A stretch of DNA of 64,000 bases from an uncultured Candidatus Rokubacteria bacterium (GTDB taxonomy: Bacteria; Methylomirabilota; Methylomirabilia; Rokubacteriales; DASRDR01): assembly GCA_963826115.1 (NCBI GenBank), contig CAWGVS010000006.1:448001-512000 (forward strand), written 5' to 3'. A model generated the notes under the pieces. The model worked only from the letters and a program-made list of their open reading frames with translations. It was not told the DNA's origin and made no database searches. Position numbers and translations under genes: made by a program. Shown here piece by piece: positions 4,797 through 9,808 of the stretch. Position 1 is the first letter of the stretch; each line of letters starts with the position of its first letter.

Positions 4797-5474
4797 TCAT
4801 GTGGCGCTTCGGGCCGGCCGAGTGACGACTAGGACGCGACGCCGGGGCAAGGCGGTGCTGGCAACGTGTCCGTGTCGATGGGCTGATCCGTGATCCGGGA
4901 CCCGCCACGGCCCGTGGGCGGCGCAGGGCCAGAGCGAGATGGGCGCGAAGGCGAGGCCGGGGAATGGTGGGAGCGACACAGGCCTCCGTACCGGAGGCCC
5001 GCGCGAGGAGCGCTGTAGCGGCCCTCGGCGAGGCCGTAGCGCCTCGACCATGCCCGCCACGGGATCGACGATCCAGTAGTAGGGGATCCCGTGATCCGCG
5101 TAGAGCTGACGCTTCCGGCTCCGGTCGATCGTCGTCGTCGACGGCGAGAGGATCTCGATCACGAGCGTCGGTGGCCCCTCGATGCCGCGGTCGCTCACGA
5201 GGTGTGCGCGGGTCGGCTCGAGGTACACCAGATCCGGCTGCACGACCGTCGTGTCGGCAAGGATGACGTCGATCGGCGCGTAGAGCACCTCCCCGAGCCG
5301 GCGGCTGGTGACGTATGCCTTGAGGATCGAGTTGAGGGCGCTGCTGACCCGCTGATGACGCGTGCCCGGCGCCGGGGTCACCGACAGTTCCCCGTCGTGC
5401 AGCTCGTACCGCCGCCCGTCGGCCGGCAGCGCCTCATAGTCACGGTACGTGAGAACCGCACGCTCGCCGTTCAC
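4797..5474 (-). CDS. Uma2 (DUF820) family endonuclease-like protein; C-terminal part disturbed by indels
   Basis: LTYRDYEALPADGRRYELHDGEL, HQ, VVQPDL, LVIEILSPST..DR..K..LYA..GIPYYWIVDP; GTG at 5474; true end probably near 4925. Confidence 0.85.
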   Translation of the reverse strand: MNGERAVLTYRDYEALPADGRRYELHDGELSVTPAPGTRHQRVSSALNSILKAYVTSRRLGEVLYAPIDVILADTTVVQPDLVYLEPTRAHLVSDRGIEGPPTLVIEILSPSTTTIDRSRKRQLYADHGIPYYWIVDPVAGMVEALRPRRGPLQRSSRGPPVRRPVSLPPFPGLAFAPISLWPCAAHGPWRVPDHGSAHRHGHVASTALPRRRVLVVTRPARSAT

Positions 5475-5480
5475 GCCCCG

Positions 5481-5510
5481 ATTGTAGGAGCCGCTCGGGC
5501 GAGCGGTCAA
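5481..5510 (-). promoter_or_regulatory. sigma70 promoter, probably leaderless transcript (Uma2)
   Basis: TTGACC-N18-TACAAT-N6-GTG. Confidence 0.65.
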
Positions 5511-5869
5511 CGCGAGCGGCGGGCCGCCGGGGCCCGCCTCGGCCGCCCACGGACACCGAGTGCCTGCCGGTGCGCGAAGAGGTGCTCTCGCGCCCGGGCC
5601 GCGTCCGCCGGGTCCTCCCAGCGCACCTGACCGAGGCGGGCGAGCGCGCTCCGGAGGTGCGGAACGTCGACCTGCCCATCGGCGTCGTGGTGCGGCAGGT
5701 GGCGCGACTTCGTGCCGTCCGGCCGGACGTGGACGACCGCGAAGGCCTCGTCGGGGAGCGCGTCGATGTCGGCGCGCTTCCAGGGCTCCGCGGACACCTC
5801 GGTCGTGGCCCAGAGGGTCCGCACGATCACGGTCACGAGCCAGGCGCTCATCCATCGGCGCGATCCCAT
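5507..5869 (-). CDS. Small probably exported protein with DUF6582-like domain
   Basis: GGAGG SD before ATG 5869; hydrophobic N-terminus ending VSA; LPDEAFA..RHLPHHD..VDVPHLRSALARLGQV. Confidence 0.65.
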   Translation of the reverse strand: MGSRRWMSAWLVTVIVRTLWATTEVSAEPWKRADIDALPDEAFAVVHVRPDGTKSRHLPHHDADGQVDVPHLRSALARLGQVRWEDPADAARAREHLFAHRQALGVRGRPRRAPAARRSR

Positions 5870-5913
5870 CGTCGCCACCTCCGATCGACGCTGCTGCGGC
5901 TGATCGCGGGTGG

Positions 5914-5929
5914 AGCAAGGACGACGCCA
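5914..5929 (-). promoter_or_regulatory. sigma54 (-24/-12) promoter candidate
   Basis: Minus strand TGGCGTCGTCCTTGCT matches TGGC-N7-TTGC(A/T), 45 nt upstream of ATG 5869. Confidence 0.6.
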
Positions 5930-6012
5930 GGTGCCGAGTGCGTCGGAACCAGGCGGCGGAACGCCAGCGTGCCGTGCGGGAAATGGAGCGGAGTGTCACG
6001 GGCGGCGCACGC

Positions 6013-6032
6013 CCGTATCGGATCGGTGACGG
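6013..6032 (-). promoter_or_regulatory. Candidate enhancer-binding-protein upstream activating sequence
   Basis: Imperfect palindrome CCGTCAC-CGATCC-GATACGG about 85-100 bp upstream of the sigma54 box; similar to 9854-9873. Confidence 0.45.
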
Positions 6033-6062
6033 TCCGCCAGTCTCCGCCAGGGAAAGCGAGAG

Positions 6063-6100
6063 CGGAACCGGCGGCCGGCGGAGGACCGGCTCCGGTTCCG
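6063..6100 (-). terminator. GC-rich stem-loop downstream of carbonic anhydrase
   Basis: CGGAACCGG...CCGGTTCCG arms with inner GCCGG/CCGGC pairing, 20 nt after the stop; weak U tail. Confidence 0.4.
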
Positions 6101-6120
6101 GTTCCCGGGGGCAGGCGGGG

Positions 6121-6612
6121 CTATTTCACCTCGCGGAGGCGGCCGGTGCGGACGTCGTAGACGAACCCGCGGACCTCGCCCCGATGCGGGACGAACGGGT
6201 TCGCCCGGACGCGCGCGAGCGACTGCCGCACGTCGTCGTCGAGGTCCGAGAACGGCTCGAAGGCGAACGGCGGCCGGATGCCCGTCTCGCCCTGGATGTC
6301 CCGCTTCAGCCCCTCGTCGGAGAAGGTGAGCATGCCGCAGTCCGTGTGGTGGATGAGGATGATCTCGCGCGTGCCGAGGAGCCGCTGGGAGATCACGAGG
6401 GAGCGGATCGCATCCTCGGTGATCGCGCCGCCGGCGTTGCGGATGACGTGGGCGTCGCCCTCGTCGAGCCCGAGGAGCTCGTGGAGGTCGAGCCGCGCGT
6501 CCATGCAGGCGACGACCGCCACGCCCTTGGCCGGCGGGAGGGGCAGATGCCCCTTCTCGAACGATCCCGCGTAGTGCTCGTTGTTCCGCAGAAGCTGATC
6601 GGTGACGCTCAT
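6121..6612 (-). CDS. beta-class carbonic anhydrase, clade D (Rv1284/COS-hydrolase-like)
   Basis: ACMDARL, HVIRNAGG, IRSLVISQRLLGTREIILIHHTDCGM; Cys/His/Cys zinc ligands; AGGAGG SD. Confidence 0.92.
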   Translation of the reverse strand: MSVTDQLLRNNEHYAGSFEKGHLPLPPAKGVAVVACMDARLDLHELLGLDEGDAHVIRNAGGAITEDAIRSLVISQRLLGTREIILIHHTDCGMLTFSDEGLKRDIQGETGIRPPFAFEPFSDLDDDVRQSLARVRANPFVPHRGEVRGFVYDVRTGRLREVK

Positions 6613-6664
6613 GATGGGTCCTCCTGTTCCGGGCCCTCTCGCGGGGCCGCGGAGCCTGAAAGCG

Positions 6665-6711
6665 CGAAAGCCGAGGGCGGGGCTCTGGGAGTCCCTGCCA
6701 CTCGGCTTTCG
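6665..6711 (-). promoter_or_regulatory. Long bulged RNA hairpin between the Zn-ribbon gene and carbonic anhydrase
   Basis: mRNA CGAAAGCCGAG-U-GGC-A-GGG-A-CUC-CCA-GAG-CCC-C-GCC-CUCGGCUUUCG: perfect 11-bp base stem plus three bulge-separated 3-bp helices. Confidence 0.6.
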
Positions 6712-6751
6712 TCTTGTGGATCGACTTGCGCCGTGGGCGGTCTGCGCCCGG

Positions 6752-6958
6752 TCACTCCCGGTAGTTGAGGGGCACCTCCACCCAGGTCTTGCACCGGGGA
6801 CACTTGGCGACGGCGCGACCGGTCTTGCCGCTGACGCGCAGGATCGCGTTCTTCACGACGAGCCCGTCGGGCTCGGGGACCACGATCTTCGTCCGGCACG
6901 TCGGGCACCGTCGCCCTTCGATGCCAGCGAGTCCTCTCACCAGGTTGCCGTCAGCCAT
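6752..6958 (-). CDS. Small Cys4 zinc-ribbon protein (68 aa)
   Basis: RCPTC...KCPRC double CxxC; canonical promoter directly upstream. Confidence 0.75.
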   Translation of the reverse strand: MADGNLVRGLAGIEGRRCPTCRTKIVVPEPDGLVVKNAILRVSGKTGRAVAKCPRCKTWVEVPLNYRE

Positions 6959-6964
6959 AGACCG

Positions 6965-6996
6965 AAACTACCTATCTTGATCGGACTTGTCAAGAT
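6965..6996 (-). promoter_or_regulatory. Leaderless sigma70 promoter overlapped by an inverted repeat
   Basis: TTGACA-N17-TAGTTT-N6-ATG; ATCTTGA-N9-TCAAGAT (6974-6996) covers the -35 box and spacer; locally AT-rich. Confidence 0.75.
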
Positions 6997-7011
6997 TGAG
7001 TCTGCCGGGGC

Positions 7012-8457
7012 CTAGGCAAGGTCCACCCAGACGCTCTTGACCTCGGTGTAGAGGTCGAGCCCCGCCTGGCCGAGCTCCCGCCCGAACCCGGACTCCTTGA
7101 AGCCGCCGAAGGGAAGGGCCGCGTCGAACAGGTTGTAAGCGTTGACCCAGACGGTGCCGGCGCGAAGCGCGCGAGCCACGCGGAGCGCCTTGCCCACGTC
7201 GCGAGTCCAGACGGCCGCCGCTAGCCCGTAGAACGTCTCGTTCCCCTGCGCGATGGCGTCGTCGACGTCCTTGAACGGGATGACGGACAGGACGGGCCCG
7301 AAGATCTCCTCGCGCGCGATGCGCATGGTGTTGGTGACGCCCGTGAAGACGGTGGGCTGGACGAAGAAGCCGCGGCCGTCGCCCACGCGGACGCGCTCGC
7401 CGCCGGCGGCGAGCGTCGCGCCCTCGCGCCGGCCGGCCTCGACGTAGCCGAGCACCGTGTCGAGCTGCTGGGCCGACACGACCGGCCCCATCCGCGTCGC
7501 CTTGTCGAGGGGGTCGCCGACCTTCAGGCCCTTGACACGATCGACGAGCTTCCCGACGAACTCGTCGTGGACGCGCTGCTCCACGAGAAGCCGTGACCCG
7601 GCCGCGCAGACCTCGCCCTTGTTGTAGTAGATCCCCGTCATCGCGCCGCGGAGGGCCGCCTCCATGTCCGCGTCCGCGAGGACGATGTTCGGCGACTTGC
7701 CGCCGAGCTCGAGCGACACGCGCTTCAGCGACCCCGCCGCCTCGCGCATGATGCCCTTGCCGACCTCGGTCGACCCCGTGAACGCCACCTTGTCGACGCC
7801 GGGGTGCCGGACCAGCGCCATGCCCGCCTTGCCCCCGGGTCCCGGCACCACGTTGAACACGCCCTCGGGAAGGCCCGCCTCCTGCGTGAGCTCCGCGAAG
7901 CGGAGCGCGGTCAGGGGCGTGAGGGACGCGGGCTTGAGGACGATCGTGTTCCCGGCCGCCAGCGCCGGCGCGATCTTCCAGGAGGCGAGGAGAAACGGGA
8001 AGTTCCAGGGCACGATGGCGCCGACGACGCCGAGCGGCTGGCGGAGCGTGAAGGTGAACGCGCCGTCGCGGAGGTTGAGCGTCTCGCCGTGGATCTTCGT
8101 CGTCCAGCCCGCGTAGTAACGGAAGACCTCGGCGGCGAACGGGAGCTCCACCTTGCCGGAGTCGAACAGGGTCTTTCCGGTGTTGACGCTCTCGAGCCGC
8201 GCCATCTCGTCGAGATTGGCGGTGATCAGGTCGGCGAGCTTCCACAGGGCGCGCGCGCGCTCGGACGCGGCCATCCGCGGCCAGGGGCCCTGGTCGAACG
8301 CGCGGCGGGCCGCCTGGACGGCGAGGTCCACGTCCCGCTCGTCGCCTCTCGCGACCTGGGCGCTCACCTCTTCCGTTGCCGGGTTGATGGTCGCGTACGT
8401 CTCGCCGGACGCGGGGGCCTGCCACCGGCCGCCGATGAAGACCTCGCTCGTGTGCAT
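7012..8457 (-). CDS. Aldehyde dehydrogenase (NAD(P)-dependent)
   Basis: IVPWNFP, FTGSTEVG, LELGGKSP, catalytic Cys in GEVCAAG, EEIFGP, PFGGFKESG; AGGAGG SD before ATG 8457. Confidence 0.93.
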   Translation of the reverse strand: MHTSEVFIGGRWQAPASGETYATINPATEEVSAQVARGDERDVDLAVQAARRAFDQGPWPRMAASERARALWKLADLITANLDEMARLESVNTGKTLFDSGKVELPFAAEVFRYYAGWTTKIHGETLNLRDGAFTFTLRQPLGVVGAIVPWNFPFLLASWKIAPALAAGNTIVLKPASLTPLTALRFAELTQEAGLPEGVFNVVPGPGGKAGMALVRHPGVDKVAFTGSTEVGKGIMREAAGSLKRVSLELGGKSPNIVLADADMEAALRGAMTGIYYNKGEVCAAGSRLLVEQRVHDEFVGKLVDRVKGLKVGDPLDKATRMGPVVSAQQLDTVLGYVEAGRREGATLAAGGERVRVGDGRGFFVQPTVFTGVTNTMRIAREEIFGPVLSVIPFKDVDDAIAQGNETFYGLAAAVWTRDVGKALRVARALRAGTVWVNAYNLFDAALPFGGFKESGFGRELGQAGLDLYTEVKSVWVDLA

Positions 8458-8623
8458 GACCTGCCTCCTGGTCGGATCGGGGGTCGGGGCCACGTCCGCG
8501 GCCGCCGGTCGGCGTCCTCGACGGGTCCCATCCAGTGTAGCCGGCGCCCTGCGCCCCGGGAAGCGCGGCGCGAGCGGACCGTTCGGCTTGACACCAGCGG
8601 CCGGAAGGCGCGACACATGATGC

Positions 8624-9808
8624 ATGACACGCCCCATGACCGGCCCGGGTCCTGCCCTCTCCCGACGGTGCCTGCTGTCCGGGCTGGGCGCGGCGGCGCT
8701 CGGCGGCCTCGCCGGTTGCGCGACCAACCCGGTCACGGGGCAATCCGAGCTCATGCTCATGTCCGAGGAGGAGGAGCTCCAGCTCGGCAAGCAGGCGTTC
8801 AGCGAGCTGGCCTGGCAGCAGGGTGGGCCCCTCCGGATCGATTCCCAGACCCAGGCCTACCTCGGCGGGATCGTCGCCAAGCTCCATCAGGTGTCGCACC
8901 GCTCGAGCCTGCCCGTCGACTTCACGCTCGAGAGCGCCTCGGAGCCGAACGCGTGGGCGATCCCCGGGCACACGGCGATGAACCGCGGCCTCCTCCAGTA
9001 CCTCGAGAACGAGGCCCAGTTCGCGTTCGTGATGGGGCACGAGATGGGACACGTCGCGGCGCGGCACACGGCGGCGCGGCAGAGCCGGGCGACGCTCGGC
9101 AGCGTGGGCGTCGGCGTGCTCGGGGTGGCGGGCGACGTCGTGGGGCTCGGCGGGCTGGTGTCCGGGGTGGCCGGGGCCAGCACCCAGCTCCTCCTCCTGA
9201 GCTACGACCGGGGCCAGGAGCTCCAGGCCGACCAGCTGGGCACCCTCTACATGGCGCGCGCGGGCTACGATCCGAACGAGGCAGCGCGGGCCCACGAGAC
9301 GCTGAACCGGGCCATCGACGCGCACCTGGCCAACCTCGGCCAGAAGCGGAGCGATCCCTCGACGATGTCGCAGATCCTGTCCACGCACCCGCGGCACGAG
9401 CAGCGCGTGTCCGAGATCCAGGCCTACATCAAGACGCTTCCCGCGTCCGAGGTCCGCCTCGACGGCGACGGACGCCACGCCGAGCGCTGGCTGCGCCAGA
9501 CCGAATCGGTCCGGCGCCTGGCGCCCGCCTACGCGCGATACGACAAGGCGCTGCGGGCGTTCACCCAGGCCGCTCAGGCTTCCGAGCAGAAGCAGGACGC
9601 CGTGGTCCGGCAGAAGATCTTCGAGGCCCAGCGCGAGATCGACGCCGCGATCCAGCTCGCGGACCAGGCCCAGTTCGAGACGCTGCAGGGCTACCTGCTC
9701 GCGGTCCAGGGGCGCAAGGCCGACGCGCGGAGCGCGTTCAATCGCGCCGTGTACCTCTACCCGGGATACCAGCCGGCCATCAAGGCGCTCGCGCGCATCG
9801 GCAGCTAG
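8624..9808 (+). CDS. M48 family metalloprotease (BepA/YfgC-like), Tat-type lipoprotein with C-terminal TPR-like helices
   Basis: SRRCLL twin-Arg, LAGC lipobox, CATNPVTG, PNAWAIPG, HEMGH, QELQAD, STHP; start could be 8636. Confidence 0.85.
   Translation: MTRPMTGPGPALSRRCLLSGLGAAALGGLAGCATNPVTGQSELMLMSEEEELQLGKQAFSELAWQQGGPLRIDSQTQAYLGGIVAKLHQVSHRSSLPVDFTLESASEPNAWAIPGHTAMNRGLLQYLENEAQFAFVMGHEMGHVAARHTAARQSRATLGSVGVGVLGVAGDVVGLGGLVSGVAGASTQLLLLSYDRGQELQADQLGTLYMARAGYDPNEAARAHETLNRAIDAHLANLGQKRSDPSTMSQILSTHPRHEQRVSEIQAYIKTLPASEVRLDGDGRHAERWLRQTESVRRLAPAYARYDKALRAFTQAAQASEQKQDAVVRQKIFEAQREIDAAIQLADQAQFETLQGYLLAVQGRKADARSAFNRAVYLYPGYQPAIKALARIGS

Follow-up and report, generated by a model that had tools for sequence, protein, structure and literature searches.

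The minus-strand locus described here, which lies in a window of 64,000 nucleotides (the whole stretch of DNA analyzed), is in our estimation, held with slightly better than even confidence, a transcription attenuator of the leader-ORF type that responds to the supply of cysteine and in which a small zinc-ribbon protein (hereinafter ZR) fills the slot of the leader. Judged by sequence comparison, the element looks like the head of sulfite-reduction genes throughout the phylum Methylomirabilota; in the window's genus (hereinafter g1) sulfite reductase looks to have been lost and the element precedes a carbonic anhydrase-like enzyme (hereinafter CA). The case is built on the conservation of the RNA, the covariation of its terminator stem, the gene contexts, the exchange of ZR for polycysteine leaders in one genus, the codon bias of the distal ZR cysteines and the purifying selection acting on ZR. 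A preliminary description of this DNA had proposed a post-transcriptional switch; the architecture fits such a switch and ties it to cysteine.

Organization of the locus

The order on the minus strand is promoter, ATG, ZR ORF, a spacer with two hairpins and the gene for a clade-D beta-CA:

6965..6998, minus strand: promoter block, with the -35 TTGACA at 6993..6988, a 17-nt spacer and the -10 TAGTTT at 6970..6965
6752..6958, minus strand: ZR ORF of 68 aa in the leader-ORF slot, with C18xxC21 and C53xxC56 and the stop codon at 6754..6752
6802..6800 and 6793..6791, minus strand: distal Cys codons of ZR, C53 (TGT) and C56 (TGC), respectively
6751..6613, minus strand: ZR-to-CA spacer of 139 nt
6722..6733, minus strand: box R1 (CGGCGCAAGUCG), 19 nt past the ZR stop codon, the proposed 5′ strand of an antiterminator
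6703..6713, minus strand: box R2 (GACGAAAGCCG), 5′ arm of hairpin 1 and also the proposed partner of R1
6665..6711, minus strand: hairpin 1, terminator-like, with an 11-bp base followed by bulged GC helices and a variable GC-rich upper stem
6664..6658, minus strand: U-rich tail CGCUUUC after hairpin 1
6629..6652, minus strand: hairpin 2, CCG-C-GGCCC / GGGCC-CGG, directly 5′ of the Shine-Dalgarno sequence and specific to the CA clade
6620..6625, minus strand: Shine-Dalgarno sequence AGGAGG of the CA gene, a purine-rich block kept in CA-clade loci
6121..6612, minus strand: clade-D beta-carbonic anhydrase of 163 aa, Rv1284-like, with Pfam Pro_CA and PDB matches

The 68-aa CxxC/CxxC protein, the 139-nt spacer, the second hairpin, the AGGAGG Shine-Dalgarno sequence and the carbonic anhydrase of the preliminary description are all present in the sequence, and the bulged hairpin that it placed at 6665-6711 is reproduced at exactly those coordinates, trailed in the window by CGCUUUCA. 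The 161-nt spacer fold has an energy of -75.4 kcal/mol (z = -3.2), a value equalled by 2 of 200 shuffles.

A canonical promoter had also been claimed at the ATG. Its -35 is indeed canonical and the block as a whole is conserved, but the -10, TAGTTT, shares only 3 of its 6 positions with TATAAT, conforming to TANNNT, and a sigma-70 scanner called no site in 5500..9000, the conserved block included. The arrangement TCAATCTTGACA...TAGTTT-N6-ATG is preserved in all 11 of the closest loci, with the DNA farther upstream being unrelated between them. Across the phylum, a strict -35/-10/in-frame-start pattern recurs in 60 of 119 loci, and relaxed versions are found in most others. As the -10 ends 6 nt before the A of the ATG (6958) in the window, the mRNA is predicted to be leaderless; the ZR start in the window has no Shine-Dalgarno sequence.

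A conserved RNA element with two predicted alternative pairings

R1, R2, hairpin 1 and the U-rich tail occur behind ZR homologs across Methylomirabilota in 93 distinct sequences, with compensatory changes in the stem. Thus, the hairpin, on whose conservation behind homologs of the 68-aa protein the preliminary description had staked its proposal, is so conserved. In the stem, 96.5% of the cells are paired and 36 cells show double changes as compared to 6.0 in shuffles, none of 500 shuffles reaching 36; an RNAalifold consensus likewise recovers hairpin 1. A covariance model of hairpin 1 and its flanks has one strong hit (E 7.7e-16) in the whole genome of 6.24 Mb, the next and unrelated matches having E-values of 0.1 and 0.49. 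Since hairpin 1 is a single-copy feature of each genome, we rejected its reading as a dispersed (REP-like) repeat. The weak covariance-model matches at L153 and L157-L159, which are unrelated in sequence, were also discarded, and an Rfam search of 5000..8000 returned no family close to threshold.

Within R1, GGC and GUCG are near-invariant in 90 sequences. When the transcript is cut before the 3′ arm, RNAfold pairs R1 with R2, and the minimum-free-energy fold of the R1..R2 segment contains both antiterminator helices in 77 of the 90. These pairs are themselves invariant, with covariation at the level of shuffles, and covariation hence neither supports nor tests the R1:R2 pairing. R1 is unpaired in the terminator form and is near-invariant all the same, which indicates that something constrains it; its invariance might equally follow from its having to pair with R2, a segment itself bound to pair with the 3′ arm. 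A stem predicted by RNAfold in the window between the 3′ end of the ZR ORF and R1 (UGGGUGG/CCGCCCA) was dropped as relatives do not conserve it.

The GC-rich stem and U-rich tail would also suit a simpler account, namely that hairpin 1 is a mere intrinsic terminator or 3′ stabilizer of a monocistronic ZR message, with the downstream genes being transcribed separately. Consistent with this, the hairpin of one relative is called terminator-like by a scanner, 0.8 such sites being expected by chance; the scanner made no call at hairpin 1 of the window, whose tail is interrupted and has 4 U per 9 nt, as against a median of 5-6 U per 9 nt in relatives. We nevertheless hold this account to be very improbable. 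The next start codon comes only 22-36 nt after the 3′ arm where sulfite reductase is downstream and 24-32 nt after it where siroheme synthase is, distances that leave no room for a promoter and that we therefore count in favor of the attenuator. In the window, where hairpin 1 ends 40 nt ahead of the Shine-Dalgarno sequence, the spacer has no promoter-like site; hence, for a separate CA promoter, a possibility raised in the preliminary description, there is neither room nor signal, as judged by the hairpin-to-start distances and the scanner. Moreover, this RNA is also found behind ORFs of 11-26 aa, from which no plausible protein would be made, and R1, which lies outside the stem, is conserved phylum-wide.

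Hairpin 2 is present in most CA-clade spacers, with both-sided changes in 2 of its 12 predicted pairs, and is absent from L042, L120 and the sulfite-reductase and siroheme-synthase loci. Only in the CA clade is the U-rich tail predicted to pair, weakly, with the Shine-Dalgarno sequence.

Genes downstream of the element

The gene after ZR codes for sulfite reductase in 54 of the 119 loci, for siroheme synthase in 30 and for the CA in 25; the remaining 10 have none or lie on contigs that are too short. With cysH/ATP sulfurylase downstream in one case, the sulfur functions predicted by the preliminary description are found. ZR stands directly ahead of sulfite reductase or siroheme synthase with the hairpin missing in between at L022, L104, L130, L128 and L129, and at L038 it reads in frame with ATP sulfurylase. 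At L019 and G136 the CA follows a sulfite-reductase operon that is in decay, which suggests deletion as the way in which the CA came to its present position. The NIR_SIR domain is found in none of the 15 genomes of g1, and this genus still retains ZR under purifying selection along with the RNA, at the highest covariance-model scores.

These contexts bring up the alternative that ZR is an accessory protein of assimilatory sulfite reduction comparable to CysX, with the hairpin serving merely to reduce sulfite reductase relative to ZR or to end the ZR transcript, and the adjacency of the CA being a relic of deletion that has no meaning for regulation. Several observations agree with it: ZR has the gene for sulfite reductase or siroheme synthase immediately behind it in 84 of the 119 loci, keeps this adjacency at the five hairpin-less loci, is continuous with ATP sulfurylase at L038, and is followed by the CA where the operon decays. 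However, ZR and the top-scoring RNA persist in g1 without NIR_SIR, genomes with polycysteine leaders (see below) have sulfite reductase and no ZR, and ZR is strongly basic, which we take to be unlike typical electron carriers. The near-invariant R1 and R2 boxes and the polycysteine leaders would also be left unexplained, and we accordingly give this alternative little credence. CysX of Corynebacterium glutamicum, the precedent on record for a small CxxC protein beside cysI, is described as ferredoxin-like and encoded in fpr2-cysIXHDNYZ (10.1101/072470; PMC2807442); compared by description only, CysX and ZR are alike as small CxxC proteins genetically tied to sulfite reductase, but cysX is downstream of cysI, whereas ZR is upstream and persists without sulfite reductase.

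Exchange of ZR for polycysteine leaders

A further context comes from genus g10, in which the RNA is found in 14 of 21 genomes, eight with ZR and six without it. In its stead, five of the latter carry leaderless ORFs that are 19-26 aa long and contain 3-5 Cys codons, of which nearly all are TGT (for example, ...HRCCCPGAA*), and the sixth is missing both leader and promoter. All six carry the RNA and sulfite reductase of their ZR-bearing congeners, behind a promoter that is similar except in its own spacer (and save for the one genome lacking it); in the two of them that were searched throughout, no ZR is found anywhere in the genome. Such an exchange of ZR for a short polycysteine ORF, with RNA and target unchanged, points to the sensing of cysteinyl-tRNA by the ribosome. 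In G002 and G090, tiny Cys-containing ORFs and the RNA precede cysH. The polycysteine loci, which represent one lineage of six related genomes, further differ in having GCCGAAC in R1 instead of GGCGAAA and in the absence of the promoter-spacer motif CCGATnGAnAAT. A search of the window's own genome for a wider polycysteine regulon gave 268 leaderless short-ORF candidates of up to 45 aa, none of them with the promoter pattern, those with three Cys codons appearing to be off-frame.

The codons of ZR itself show a related signature. In the long ORFs of the ZR loci, which we used as background, 9.4% of Cys codons are TGT; in ZR this codon specifies C53 in 73 of 98 sequences and C56 in 53, as compared to 13 for C18 and 4 for C21, counts that overstate independence because the sequences are related. 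The bias is mixed in ZR loci without the hairpin. Truncated remnants of ZR, 23 and 28 aa long, in two genomes retain the frame, the position of the stop and the TGT codon of Cys56. The ZR ORF of the window has 68 codons of which four specify Cys; two of these (TGT and TGC) are located 12-15 codons ahead of the stop and none are consecutive.

ZR as a protein

ZR is more than a leader. Its 123 homologs (E <= 0.01) share an invariant core, and a dN/dS of 0.14 in the CA clade indicates purifying selection, from which, as far as sequence can tell, ZR has a function as a protein in addition to its proposed role as leader; that protein could itself be the regulator. The AF2 model has five strands (pLDDT 74) and the 52-residue core has a net charge between +5 and +8. 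Zinc-ribbon matches in Pfam and NCBIfam are all below their cut-offs, the best sequence match in the PDB has an E-value of 0.36, and a fold search of the PDB gave no match at E <= 0.001; the nearest, non-significant folds are the nucleic-acid-binding zinc ribbons of RPB9/C11, RNase P Rpp21 and NrdR. Searching the ESM Atlas with ZR recovered only its own cluster together with unnamed or generic zinc-ribbon clusters.

The chief competing proposal is that ZR is a trans-acting nucleic-acid-binding regulator, in which case the protein and not the ribosome would set the readthrough into sulfite reductase or the CA. As a basic zinc ribbon it might bind R1/R2, stabilizing or blocking the antiterminator in the manner of HutP or LicT, or bind the conserved spacer of its own promoter, with the four cysteines reporting zinc, thiol or sulfide. 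The conserved, folded and basic core, the kinds of folds nearest to it, the near-invariance of R1 despite its being unpaired in the terminator form, and the retention of ZR in a genus without sulfite reductase all speak for such a role. So does the dispensability of ZR where a polycysteine leader stands in, as would be expected if both were alternative sensors, along with the altered R1 and the missing CCGATnGAnAAT of those loci. Precedents for the gene order regulator-terminator-target exist in hutP-hutH and licT-bglPH. In the hut operon of Bacillus subtilis and in LicT-type systems the first gene is the regulator, with a terminator ahead of the structural genes, and this order matches the locus if ZR acts in trans; no similarity of ZR to HutP or LicT was found in sequence or fold, nor did we recognize any repeated site of the UAG or RAT type. 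Yet ZR belongs to no family by Pfam, NCBIfam or PDB sequence, its match to Com has a probability of 35%, and binding by it is hypothetical; the polycysteine exchange and the rare-codon bias at C53 and C56 are more simply explained by ribosome sensing; the differences in R1 and promoter come from a single lineage; and R1 invariance can also be attributed to the R1:R2 and R2:3′-arm pairings. Weighing these, we consider it unlikely that ZR in trans, rather than the ribosome, is what decides.

Com of phage Mu, the translational activator of mom, had been offered as a model in the preliminary description. The Com target structure is said to hide the start of mom. ZR resembles Com (AF083977) in being a small Cys4 zinc protein with an RCPxC knuckle, encoded just upstream of its presumptive target, but in the Mu record com overlaps mom, whereas here the hairpin is terminator-like and set apart from the Shine-Dalgarno sequence. 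Kinship is not borne out: the Pfam family of Com, presumably Zn_ribbon_Com, is not matched at E <= 0.1, and a profile comparison (hhalign) gives a probability of 35% over 18 columns, covering one CxxC knuckle. Nor does the Com-type geometry hold, as hairpin 1 contains neither the downstream Shine-Dalgarno sequence nor the start codon. Some JGI annotations label ZR homologs as 'phage FluMu protein Com'.

Proposed mechanism of cysteine attenuation

Returning to the attenuator with ZR as leader, we envisage that transcription from the conserved promoter begins at the ZR start codon or beside it, so that translation of ZR would run alongside transcription of R1, R2 and the terminator-like hairpin. 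R2 would then have two possible partners, R1, giving a weak antiterminator (about -9 kcal/mol), or the 3′ arm, giving the terminator (about -30 kcal/mol). With cysteinyl-tRNA plentiful, a ribosome at the ZR stop would hinder R1, the terminator would form and little transcript would reach the downstream gene; with cysteine short, the ribosome would lag at the C53 TGT and C56 TGC codons, allowing R1 to pair with R2 and transcription to read through. Across the phylum the genes so controlled would be those for sulfite reductase and siroheme synthase, and in g1, where these are lost, the clade-D beta-CA that now lies behind the attenuator. Termination, formation of R1:R2, the position of the ribosome as decider and cysteine as the signal are what we infer here.

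Several features sit uneasily with this mechanism. ZR has two separated distal Cys codons, 12 codons before the stop, and its geometry differs from that of the polycysteine leaders: the last Cys codon is 26-29 nt from R1 in the five polycysteine leaders as compared to about 58 nt in the ZR of the window. The stop codon of ZR is 9 to 37 nt from R1 overall (median 16 nt in relatives), and the 13-29 nt of the CA clade mean that at many loci a ribosome standing on the stop codon would not extend as far as R1. The U tract of the window is weak and interrupted, there are ZR loci without the hairpin, and ZR starts behind a leader, or is coupled in translation to an upstream gene, in some lineages.

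A bolder version would have ZR work in both ways, with its rare Cys codons acting in cis and the finished zinc-ribbon protein binding R1/R2 or its own promoter to reinforce the shut-off in trans, and with the switch in g1 driving the clade-D beta-CA as a carbonyl sulfide (COS) hydrolase. ZR would then be made only when cysteine (and zinc) allow, a leader ORF turned regulatory protein. We regard this full combination as a long shot; if true, it would give soil bacteria unable to reduce sulfite an on-demand supply of sulfide from atmospheric COS.

The carbonic anhydrase and its possible part in sulfur acquisition

The CA matches Pfam Pro_CA with an E-value of 1.8e-12 (48.2 bits; cut-off 25.7) and beta-CA 1 of Mycobacterium tuberculosis, Rv1284 (PDB 1ylk), end to end over residues 2-162 (3.2e-64); it further matches the COS hydrolase 3vqj over residues 2-111 (3.3e-41) and the CS2 hydrolase 3ten (1.5e-24). 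By its CxDxR and HxxC motifs (VACMDAR and HHTDCG), it has the Cys/His/Cys zinc site and Asp-Arg dyad of Pro_CA, in a chain of about 160 aa like that of Rv1284. Its clade-D label is our presumption, drawn from the nearest structures and from general knowledge of the family. The enzyme is possibly a COS hydrolase, a class marked by high activity on COS and low activity on CO2, and its link to cysteine would follow from its position behind the element. We know of no cysteine-attenuator control in the family of Rv1284 and the clade-D COS and CS2 hydrolases. That the CA follows the proposed cysteine attenuator in g1, which has no sulfite reductase, offers a regulatory argument for a part of Rv1284-type beta-CAs in sulfur acquisition. 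Assimilation of COS through such an enzyme has been reported in a fungus (PMC10880591), and COS assimilation by soil bacteria via clade-D CAs becomes a testable idea.

Relationship to known attenuators

The preliminary description called the switch a candidate new one, which is too strong because polycysteine leaderless sORFs that attenuate cysteine operons have been published from mycobacteria (Canestrari et al., 10.1101/834739). Among the literature found, these are the only known cysteine attenuators. The present loci resemble them in a first cistron that is predicted to be leaderless and has Cys codons toward its 3′ end, and in the genes of cysteine or sulfur assimilation downstream, the sensor in mycobacteria being ribosome pausing. 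The five polycysteine variants of g10 fit the mycobacterial description closely, their short ORFs having two or more Cys codons in succession, a trait that the ZR ORF of the window lacks. Unlike the mycobacterial sORFs, the present loci belong to another phylum and most of them, the window included, would have as their sensor a conserved zinc-ribbon ORF of 60-68 aa, in which the cysteines form CxxC pairs and not a run. The one mycobacterial case dissected in that work, Ms5788A, acts translationally by unmasking of the Shine-Dalgarno sequence, and its authors leave the mechanism of the others undecided (10.1101/834739); here, in contrast, a terminator-like hairpin with an alternative pairing suggests the classical transcriptional type.

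The classical attenuators of the trp, his, leu and thr operons consist of a promoter and a translated leader ORF with codons, near its 3′ end, for the amino acid under control, followed by an antiterminator and a terminator that exclude each other and then by the biosynthetic genes. The locus resembles them in its promoter, in an ORF with Cys codons in the leader position, in a terminator-like hairpin with the predicted alternative pairing R1:R2, and in having a gene directly behind. It differs in that the leader is long and encodes a protein under selection, two separated rare codons would serve as the regulatory codons, no 'region 1' segment pairing with R1 is identified, and the gene controlled in the window is not a recognized cysteine-biosynthesis gene, whereas those of its relatives are. 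Such leader-peptide attenuators are summarized in the introduction of 10.1101/834739.

If the proposed reading is correct, cysteine attenuation would extend to an uncultured soil phylum and to the classical terminator/antiterminator form, with a leader that is a conserved zinc-ribbon protein interchangeable with a polycysteine peptide inside one genus. This interchange amounts to a natural experiment on the origin and replacement of sensor ORFs. A classical Trp attenuator, which serves as a precedent within the phylum, is present in the window's own family, with a leader reading ...QWWWRW..., a terminator and trpEG. In four metatranscriptome runs we found only short contigs of relatives of 88-95% likeness, mostly on the conserved core of the CA.

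Organization of the zinc-ribbon locus

The 68-aa Cys4 zinc-ribbon ORF (hereinafter ZR), the spacer behind it, the clade-D β-carbonic anhydrase (CA) and the flanking features all lie on the minus strand of the window:

Aldehyde dehydrogenase (ALDH) gene, ending at 7012, minus strand (Pfam Aldedh, 5.4e-186)
-35 element TTGACA, 6993..6988, minus strand, from the sequence
-10 element TAGTTT, 6970..6965, minus strand, 17 nt after TTGACA and 6 nt before the ZR ATG
ZR, 68-aa ORF, ATG at 6958, stop at 6754..6752, minus strand, with C18xxC21 and C53xxC56
Hairpin 1, long and bulged, 6711..6665, minus strand, then CGCUUUCA
Hairpin 2, 6652..6629, minus strand, directly ahead of AGGAGG
AGGAGG, 6625..6620, minus strand, just past hairpin 2
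CA, 163-aa β-carbonic anhydrase, 6612..6121, minus strand (Pro_CA, 1.8e-12)

The ZR ATG falls 53 nt past the aldehyde dehydrogenase gene, with no Shine–Dalgarno sequence ahead of it. A sigma-70 scanner does not call the window promoter because its -10 element fits TATAAT at only three of six positions; the promoter block and its N6-ATG spacing are kept in the 11 closest loci, and ahead of the block these loci are unrelated in sequence. The 139-nt spacer between ZR and CA folds with z = -3.2 (2 of 200 shuffles fold equally well) and resembles nothing in Rfam. Gene order, promoter and spacer hairpins are as a preliminary description of this locus had them, with both hairpins in the places it gave.

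A promoter spacer motif, CCGATnGAnAAT, is conserved across the phylum. In the window, a 7-bp dyad overlapping the -35 element (ATCTTGA, 6996..6990; TCAAGAT, 6980..6974; minus strand) could, from its sequence, make 6974..6996 an operator. A 123-aa ORF lacking Pfam or NCBIfam matches (5507..5878, minus strand) lies 240 nt downstream of CA and is kept at 64–72% in three close loci (L002, L004, L007).

A conserved RNA element downstream of ZR

We compared 39 loci from species genomes and 80 from metagenomes. Both flanks stay conserved in remote loci where ZR identity drops to 46%, and 93 distinct downstream sequences align with the consensus CAAGGCGAAAGUCG - N - AAGACGGAAAGCCGAG - [variable GC stem-loop] - CUCGGCUUUU..UUYC. 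The hairpin 1 stem is 96.5% paired across the alignment and holds 36 cells changed on both sides versus 6.0 in shuffles (0 of 500 reach 36); RNAalifold finds compensatory changes in 6 of 14 pairs. Conservation of the hairpin behind ZR homologues, which the preliminary description had proposed as a test of its switch, is borne out by these 93 distinct sequences and the stem covariation. A covariance model trained on the aligned sequences gives a single strong match in the window's genome (E 7.7e-16) and matches in 41 of 121 phylum genomes sampled, usually one per genome, with ZR present in 35 of the 121; both tallies take in G058 and G047, genomes flagged unpublished, which by themselves carry no conclusion here. 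In roughly 27 genomes, match positions compared by eye place the RNA directly behind the ZR stop. Given its conservation, covariation and one-per-genome matches, the RNA element is real, single-copy and specific to the ZR locus.

One genome carries a second promoter and RNA copy (L127, G055:C227:6400-9600), with no ORF between them and a further gene downstream. Within the window's genus, one variant (L009, L046, L131 (G065)) has lost both hairpins and the initial 111 CA codons by deletion; the last 52 CA codons stand ~20 nt past the ZR stop.

Attenuator-like geometry and a predicted alternative pairing

By Pfam, a NIR_SIR sulfite/nitrite reductase lies downstream in 54 of the 119 loci and a siroheme synthase (NAD_binding_7 + TP_methylase) in 30; CA does so in 25, and in 10 there is nothing downstream or the contig is too short. 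The genes upstream of ZR differ: trpEG, MscS, an ABC permease, or a rhodanese plus cysteine synthase. The RNA tail has a median of 5–6 U in 9 nt, and the next start codon follows the 3′ arm by 22–36 nt in sulfite-reductase loci and 24–32 nt in siroheme-synthase loci. So short a gap leaves no room for a promoter and the downstream gene must therefore be read through the hairpin, which speaks against hairpin 1 being a plain terminator, a reading we regard as very improbable. As read from sequence, the gene-hairpin-gene layout is spaced as in an attenuator.

Almost no variation is seen in two boxes that lie outside the stem or at its foot: R1 (GGCGAAAGUCG), a proposed antiterminator 5′ strand, and R2 (GACG(G)AAAGCCG), the 5′ arm of hairpin 1. 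For transcripts truncated ahead of the 3′ arm, the MFE structure from RNAfold pairs R1 with R2 in 77 of 90 sequences; GGC joins GCC and GUC joins GAC, with a purine internal loop between the two helices. The predicted pairing (median -8.6 kcal/mol versus -32.4 kcal/mol for the hairpin) would be mutually exclusive with the hairpin; as its pairs never vary, covariation is no test of it.

A probable leader-ORF slot for ZR

In some genomes strong RNA matches occur without ZR. In another genus, g10, the RNA is found in 14 of 21 genomes: eight of the 14 have a 67-aa ZR, five have a leaderless 19–26 aa ORF behind a promoter that is similar but differs in its spacer, and in one both leader and promoter are gone. 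The five polycysteine leaders (MKKAVVSRRAHRCCCPGCCPGAPQAF, MQKAGGRAHRCSCPGCCPGAA, MTKAAGGTRAHRCCCPGAAQAF, MKKATGRALEHRCCCPGAA, MKQVMISVAQHFCCCPAGDRGAF) are followed by the same RNA and then the same sulfite reductase; their Cys codons are TGT almost throughout, with the last one 26–29 nt before R1 irrespective of stop position. The two ZR-less g10 genomes checked lack ZR anywhere in the genome. In G002 and G090, an 11-aa ORF with Cys codons and the RNA stand ahead of cysH and ATP sulfurylase, and ZR is found further on, immediately ahead of sulfite reductase, without a hairpin. In two genomes ZR survives as remnants, 23 and 28 aa long, in which reading frame, stop position and the TGT codon for Cys56 are all retained; in one genome the slot is reduced to ATG-GAC-TGA. 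A weak RNA-model match in the window's family, f1 (L155, G107:C27:32100-34500, minus strand), is a classical Trp attenuator with the order leader MRRILGDPLTRADRQWWWRWRVRRGPGTPPV* (...QWWWRW...), GC hairpin with UUUUUU terminator, trpE-trpG. Together, the ZR swaps, the remnants and the Trp attenuator indicate that leader-ORF attenuation exists in Methylomirabilota and that the ZR slot is, by its sequence context, a leader-ORF slot.

The g10 polycysteine-leader promoters lack the promoter spacer motif. In these loci (L140, L142-L145) the leaderless mRNA 5′ end, AUGAAGAAGGCC, has a complement, GGCCUUCU, at the leader stop codon or immediately after it; RNAfold pairs the two, and the modeled pairing could mask the start codon once the leader has been translated a first time.

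Mycobacterial cysteine operons are described as attenuated by polycysteine leaderless sORFs; the case that was dissected acts on translation, and for the rest the authors leave the mechanism undecided (10.1101/834739). For Actinobacteria, an older comparative paper predicted leaders that are rich in Cys but lack terminators (PMC1262725). The g10 variants belong to this kind, here with a terminator-like hairpin. The polycysteine-leader form of the attenuator is already known, and the ZR form would be a new variation on it.

On balance, we lean toward a cysteine attenuator with ZR as its leader ORF. TGT accounts for 51 of 545 Cys codons (9.4%) across the long ORFs of ZR loci; among 98 distinct but related, and hence not independent, ZR genes it encodes C18 in 13, C21 in 4, C53 in 73 and C56 in 53. 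From the ZR stop to the R1 GGC there are 9–37 nt (median 16), or 13–29 nt (median 19) in the CA clade. The TGT bias, the TGT of the polycysteine leaders and the stop-R1 distance are consistent with ribosome sensing at the distal CxxC. Against it, the distal Cys codons are only two, separated, and 12 codons before the stop, and there are ZR genes with a leader or with coupling to the gene upstream. Hairpin-less ZR loci are mixed, with all TGC in two and TGT retained in three.

The ZR protein family

Searches with ZR give 123 homologues (E <= 0.01) from a 5.8-billion-protein collection and, from a 1.84-billion library, 71 cluster representatives (E <= 0.001); the named sources are Rokubacteria/Methylomirabilota. 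Residues 1 to ~16 are variable and the core, RCPxCRTKIVVP..GLVVKNAILRV..AKCPRCKxWVEVPLxYR, is near-invariant with a net charge of +5 to +8. No curated family matches at its threshold. The AlphaFold model (pLDDT 74, five strands) has no neighbor among PDB folds at E <= 0.001, the nearest being the generic zinc ribbons of RPB9/C11, Rpp21 and NrdR (E > 0.001). In the CA clade, dN/dS is 0.14 (19 genes, 170 pairs; core pN 0.048, pS 0.364) and ZR is thus more than a leader. It may instead be a trans-acting regulator, for which HutP offers a possible analogous logic, though we consider this rather unlikely. The preliminary description had envisaged ZR binding the bulged hairpin to license CA expression in the manner of phage Mu Com. 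This is right in part: a switch-like architecture, its cysteine/sulfur link and the conserved hairpin stand, but the Com analogy falls, no kinship with Com having emerged from the tests run.

In one lineage (L056, L057, L058, L064, L065, L083, L076) ZR lacks its own promoter and its ATG overlaps the upstream stop (TGATGG), an arrangement that reads as translational coupling; the RNA element is still behind it. In a single MAG labelled Deltaproteobacteria (L038:2926-4338), the ZR frame runs without a stop into ATP sulfurylase, possibly a fusion, a lost stop or an assembly error.

Carbonic anhydrase in the window's genus

CA matches M. tuberculosis Rv1284 (3.2e-64), the COS hydrolase 3vqj (3.3e-41) and the CS2 hydrolase 3ten (1.5e-24), and from these similarities might act as a COS hydrolase. 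The window's genome (99.09% complete, 5.34% contamination) yields no match to NIR_SIR, the family of assimilatory and dissimilatory sulfite/nitrite reductases, in a search whose control was positive in 11 of 14 known genomes, and nothing with a relative's sulfite reductase as query; the family is likewise missing from the 14 other genomes of the window's genus, g1 (0/15 with the window's), and present in all six other genera of f1. ATP-sulfurylase family matches are also absent from the window's genome, which has a PAPS_reduct gene at C12:296058-296753.

Sister genera show the order trpEG-ZR-RNA-sulfite reductase-sirC-cysG...luciferase-like monooxygenase; in L019 the sulfite reductase is frameshifted, the methylase is truncated and CA follows immediately (Nanopore assembly errors being possible); and g1 has ALDH-ZR-RNA-hairpin 2-CA. 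From these gene orders, CA probably came to the attenuator through deletions. That ZR is a sulfite reductase accessory protein and CA a relic appears improbable to us; the attenuator is not decayed in g1, since ZR is under selection and the g1 RNA scores are the highest of all under the covariance model. Hairpin 2 is limited to the CA clade, where 2 of its 12 pairs show compensatory changes, and is absent in L042 and L120; RNAalifold further predicts pairing of the U-rich tail with the Shine–Dalgarno sequence, by way of weak G-U pairs.
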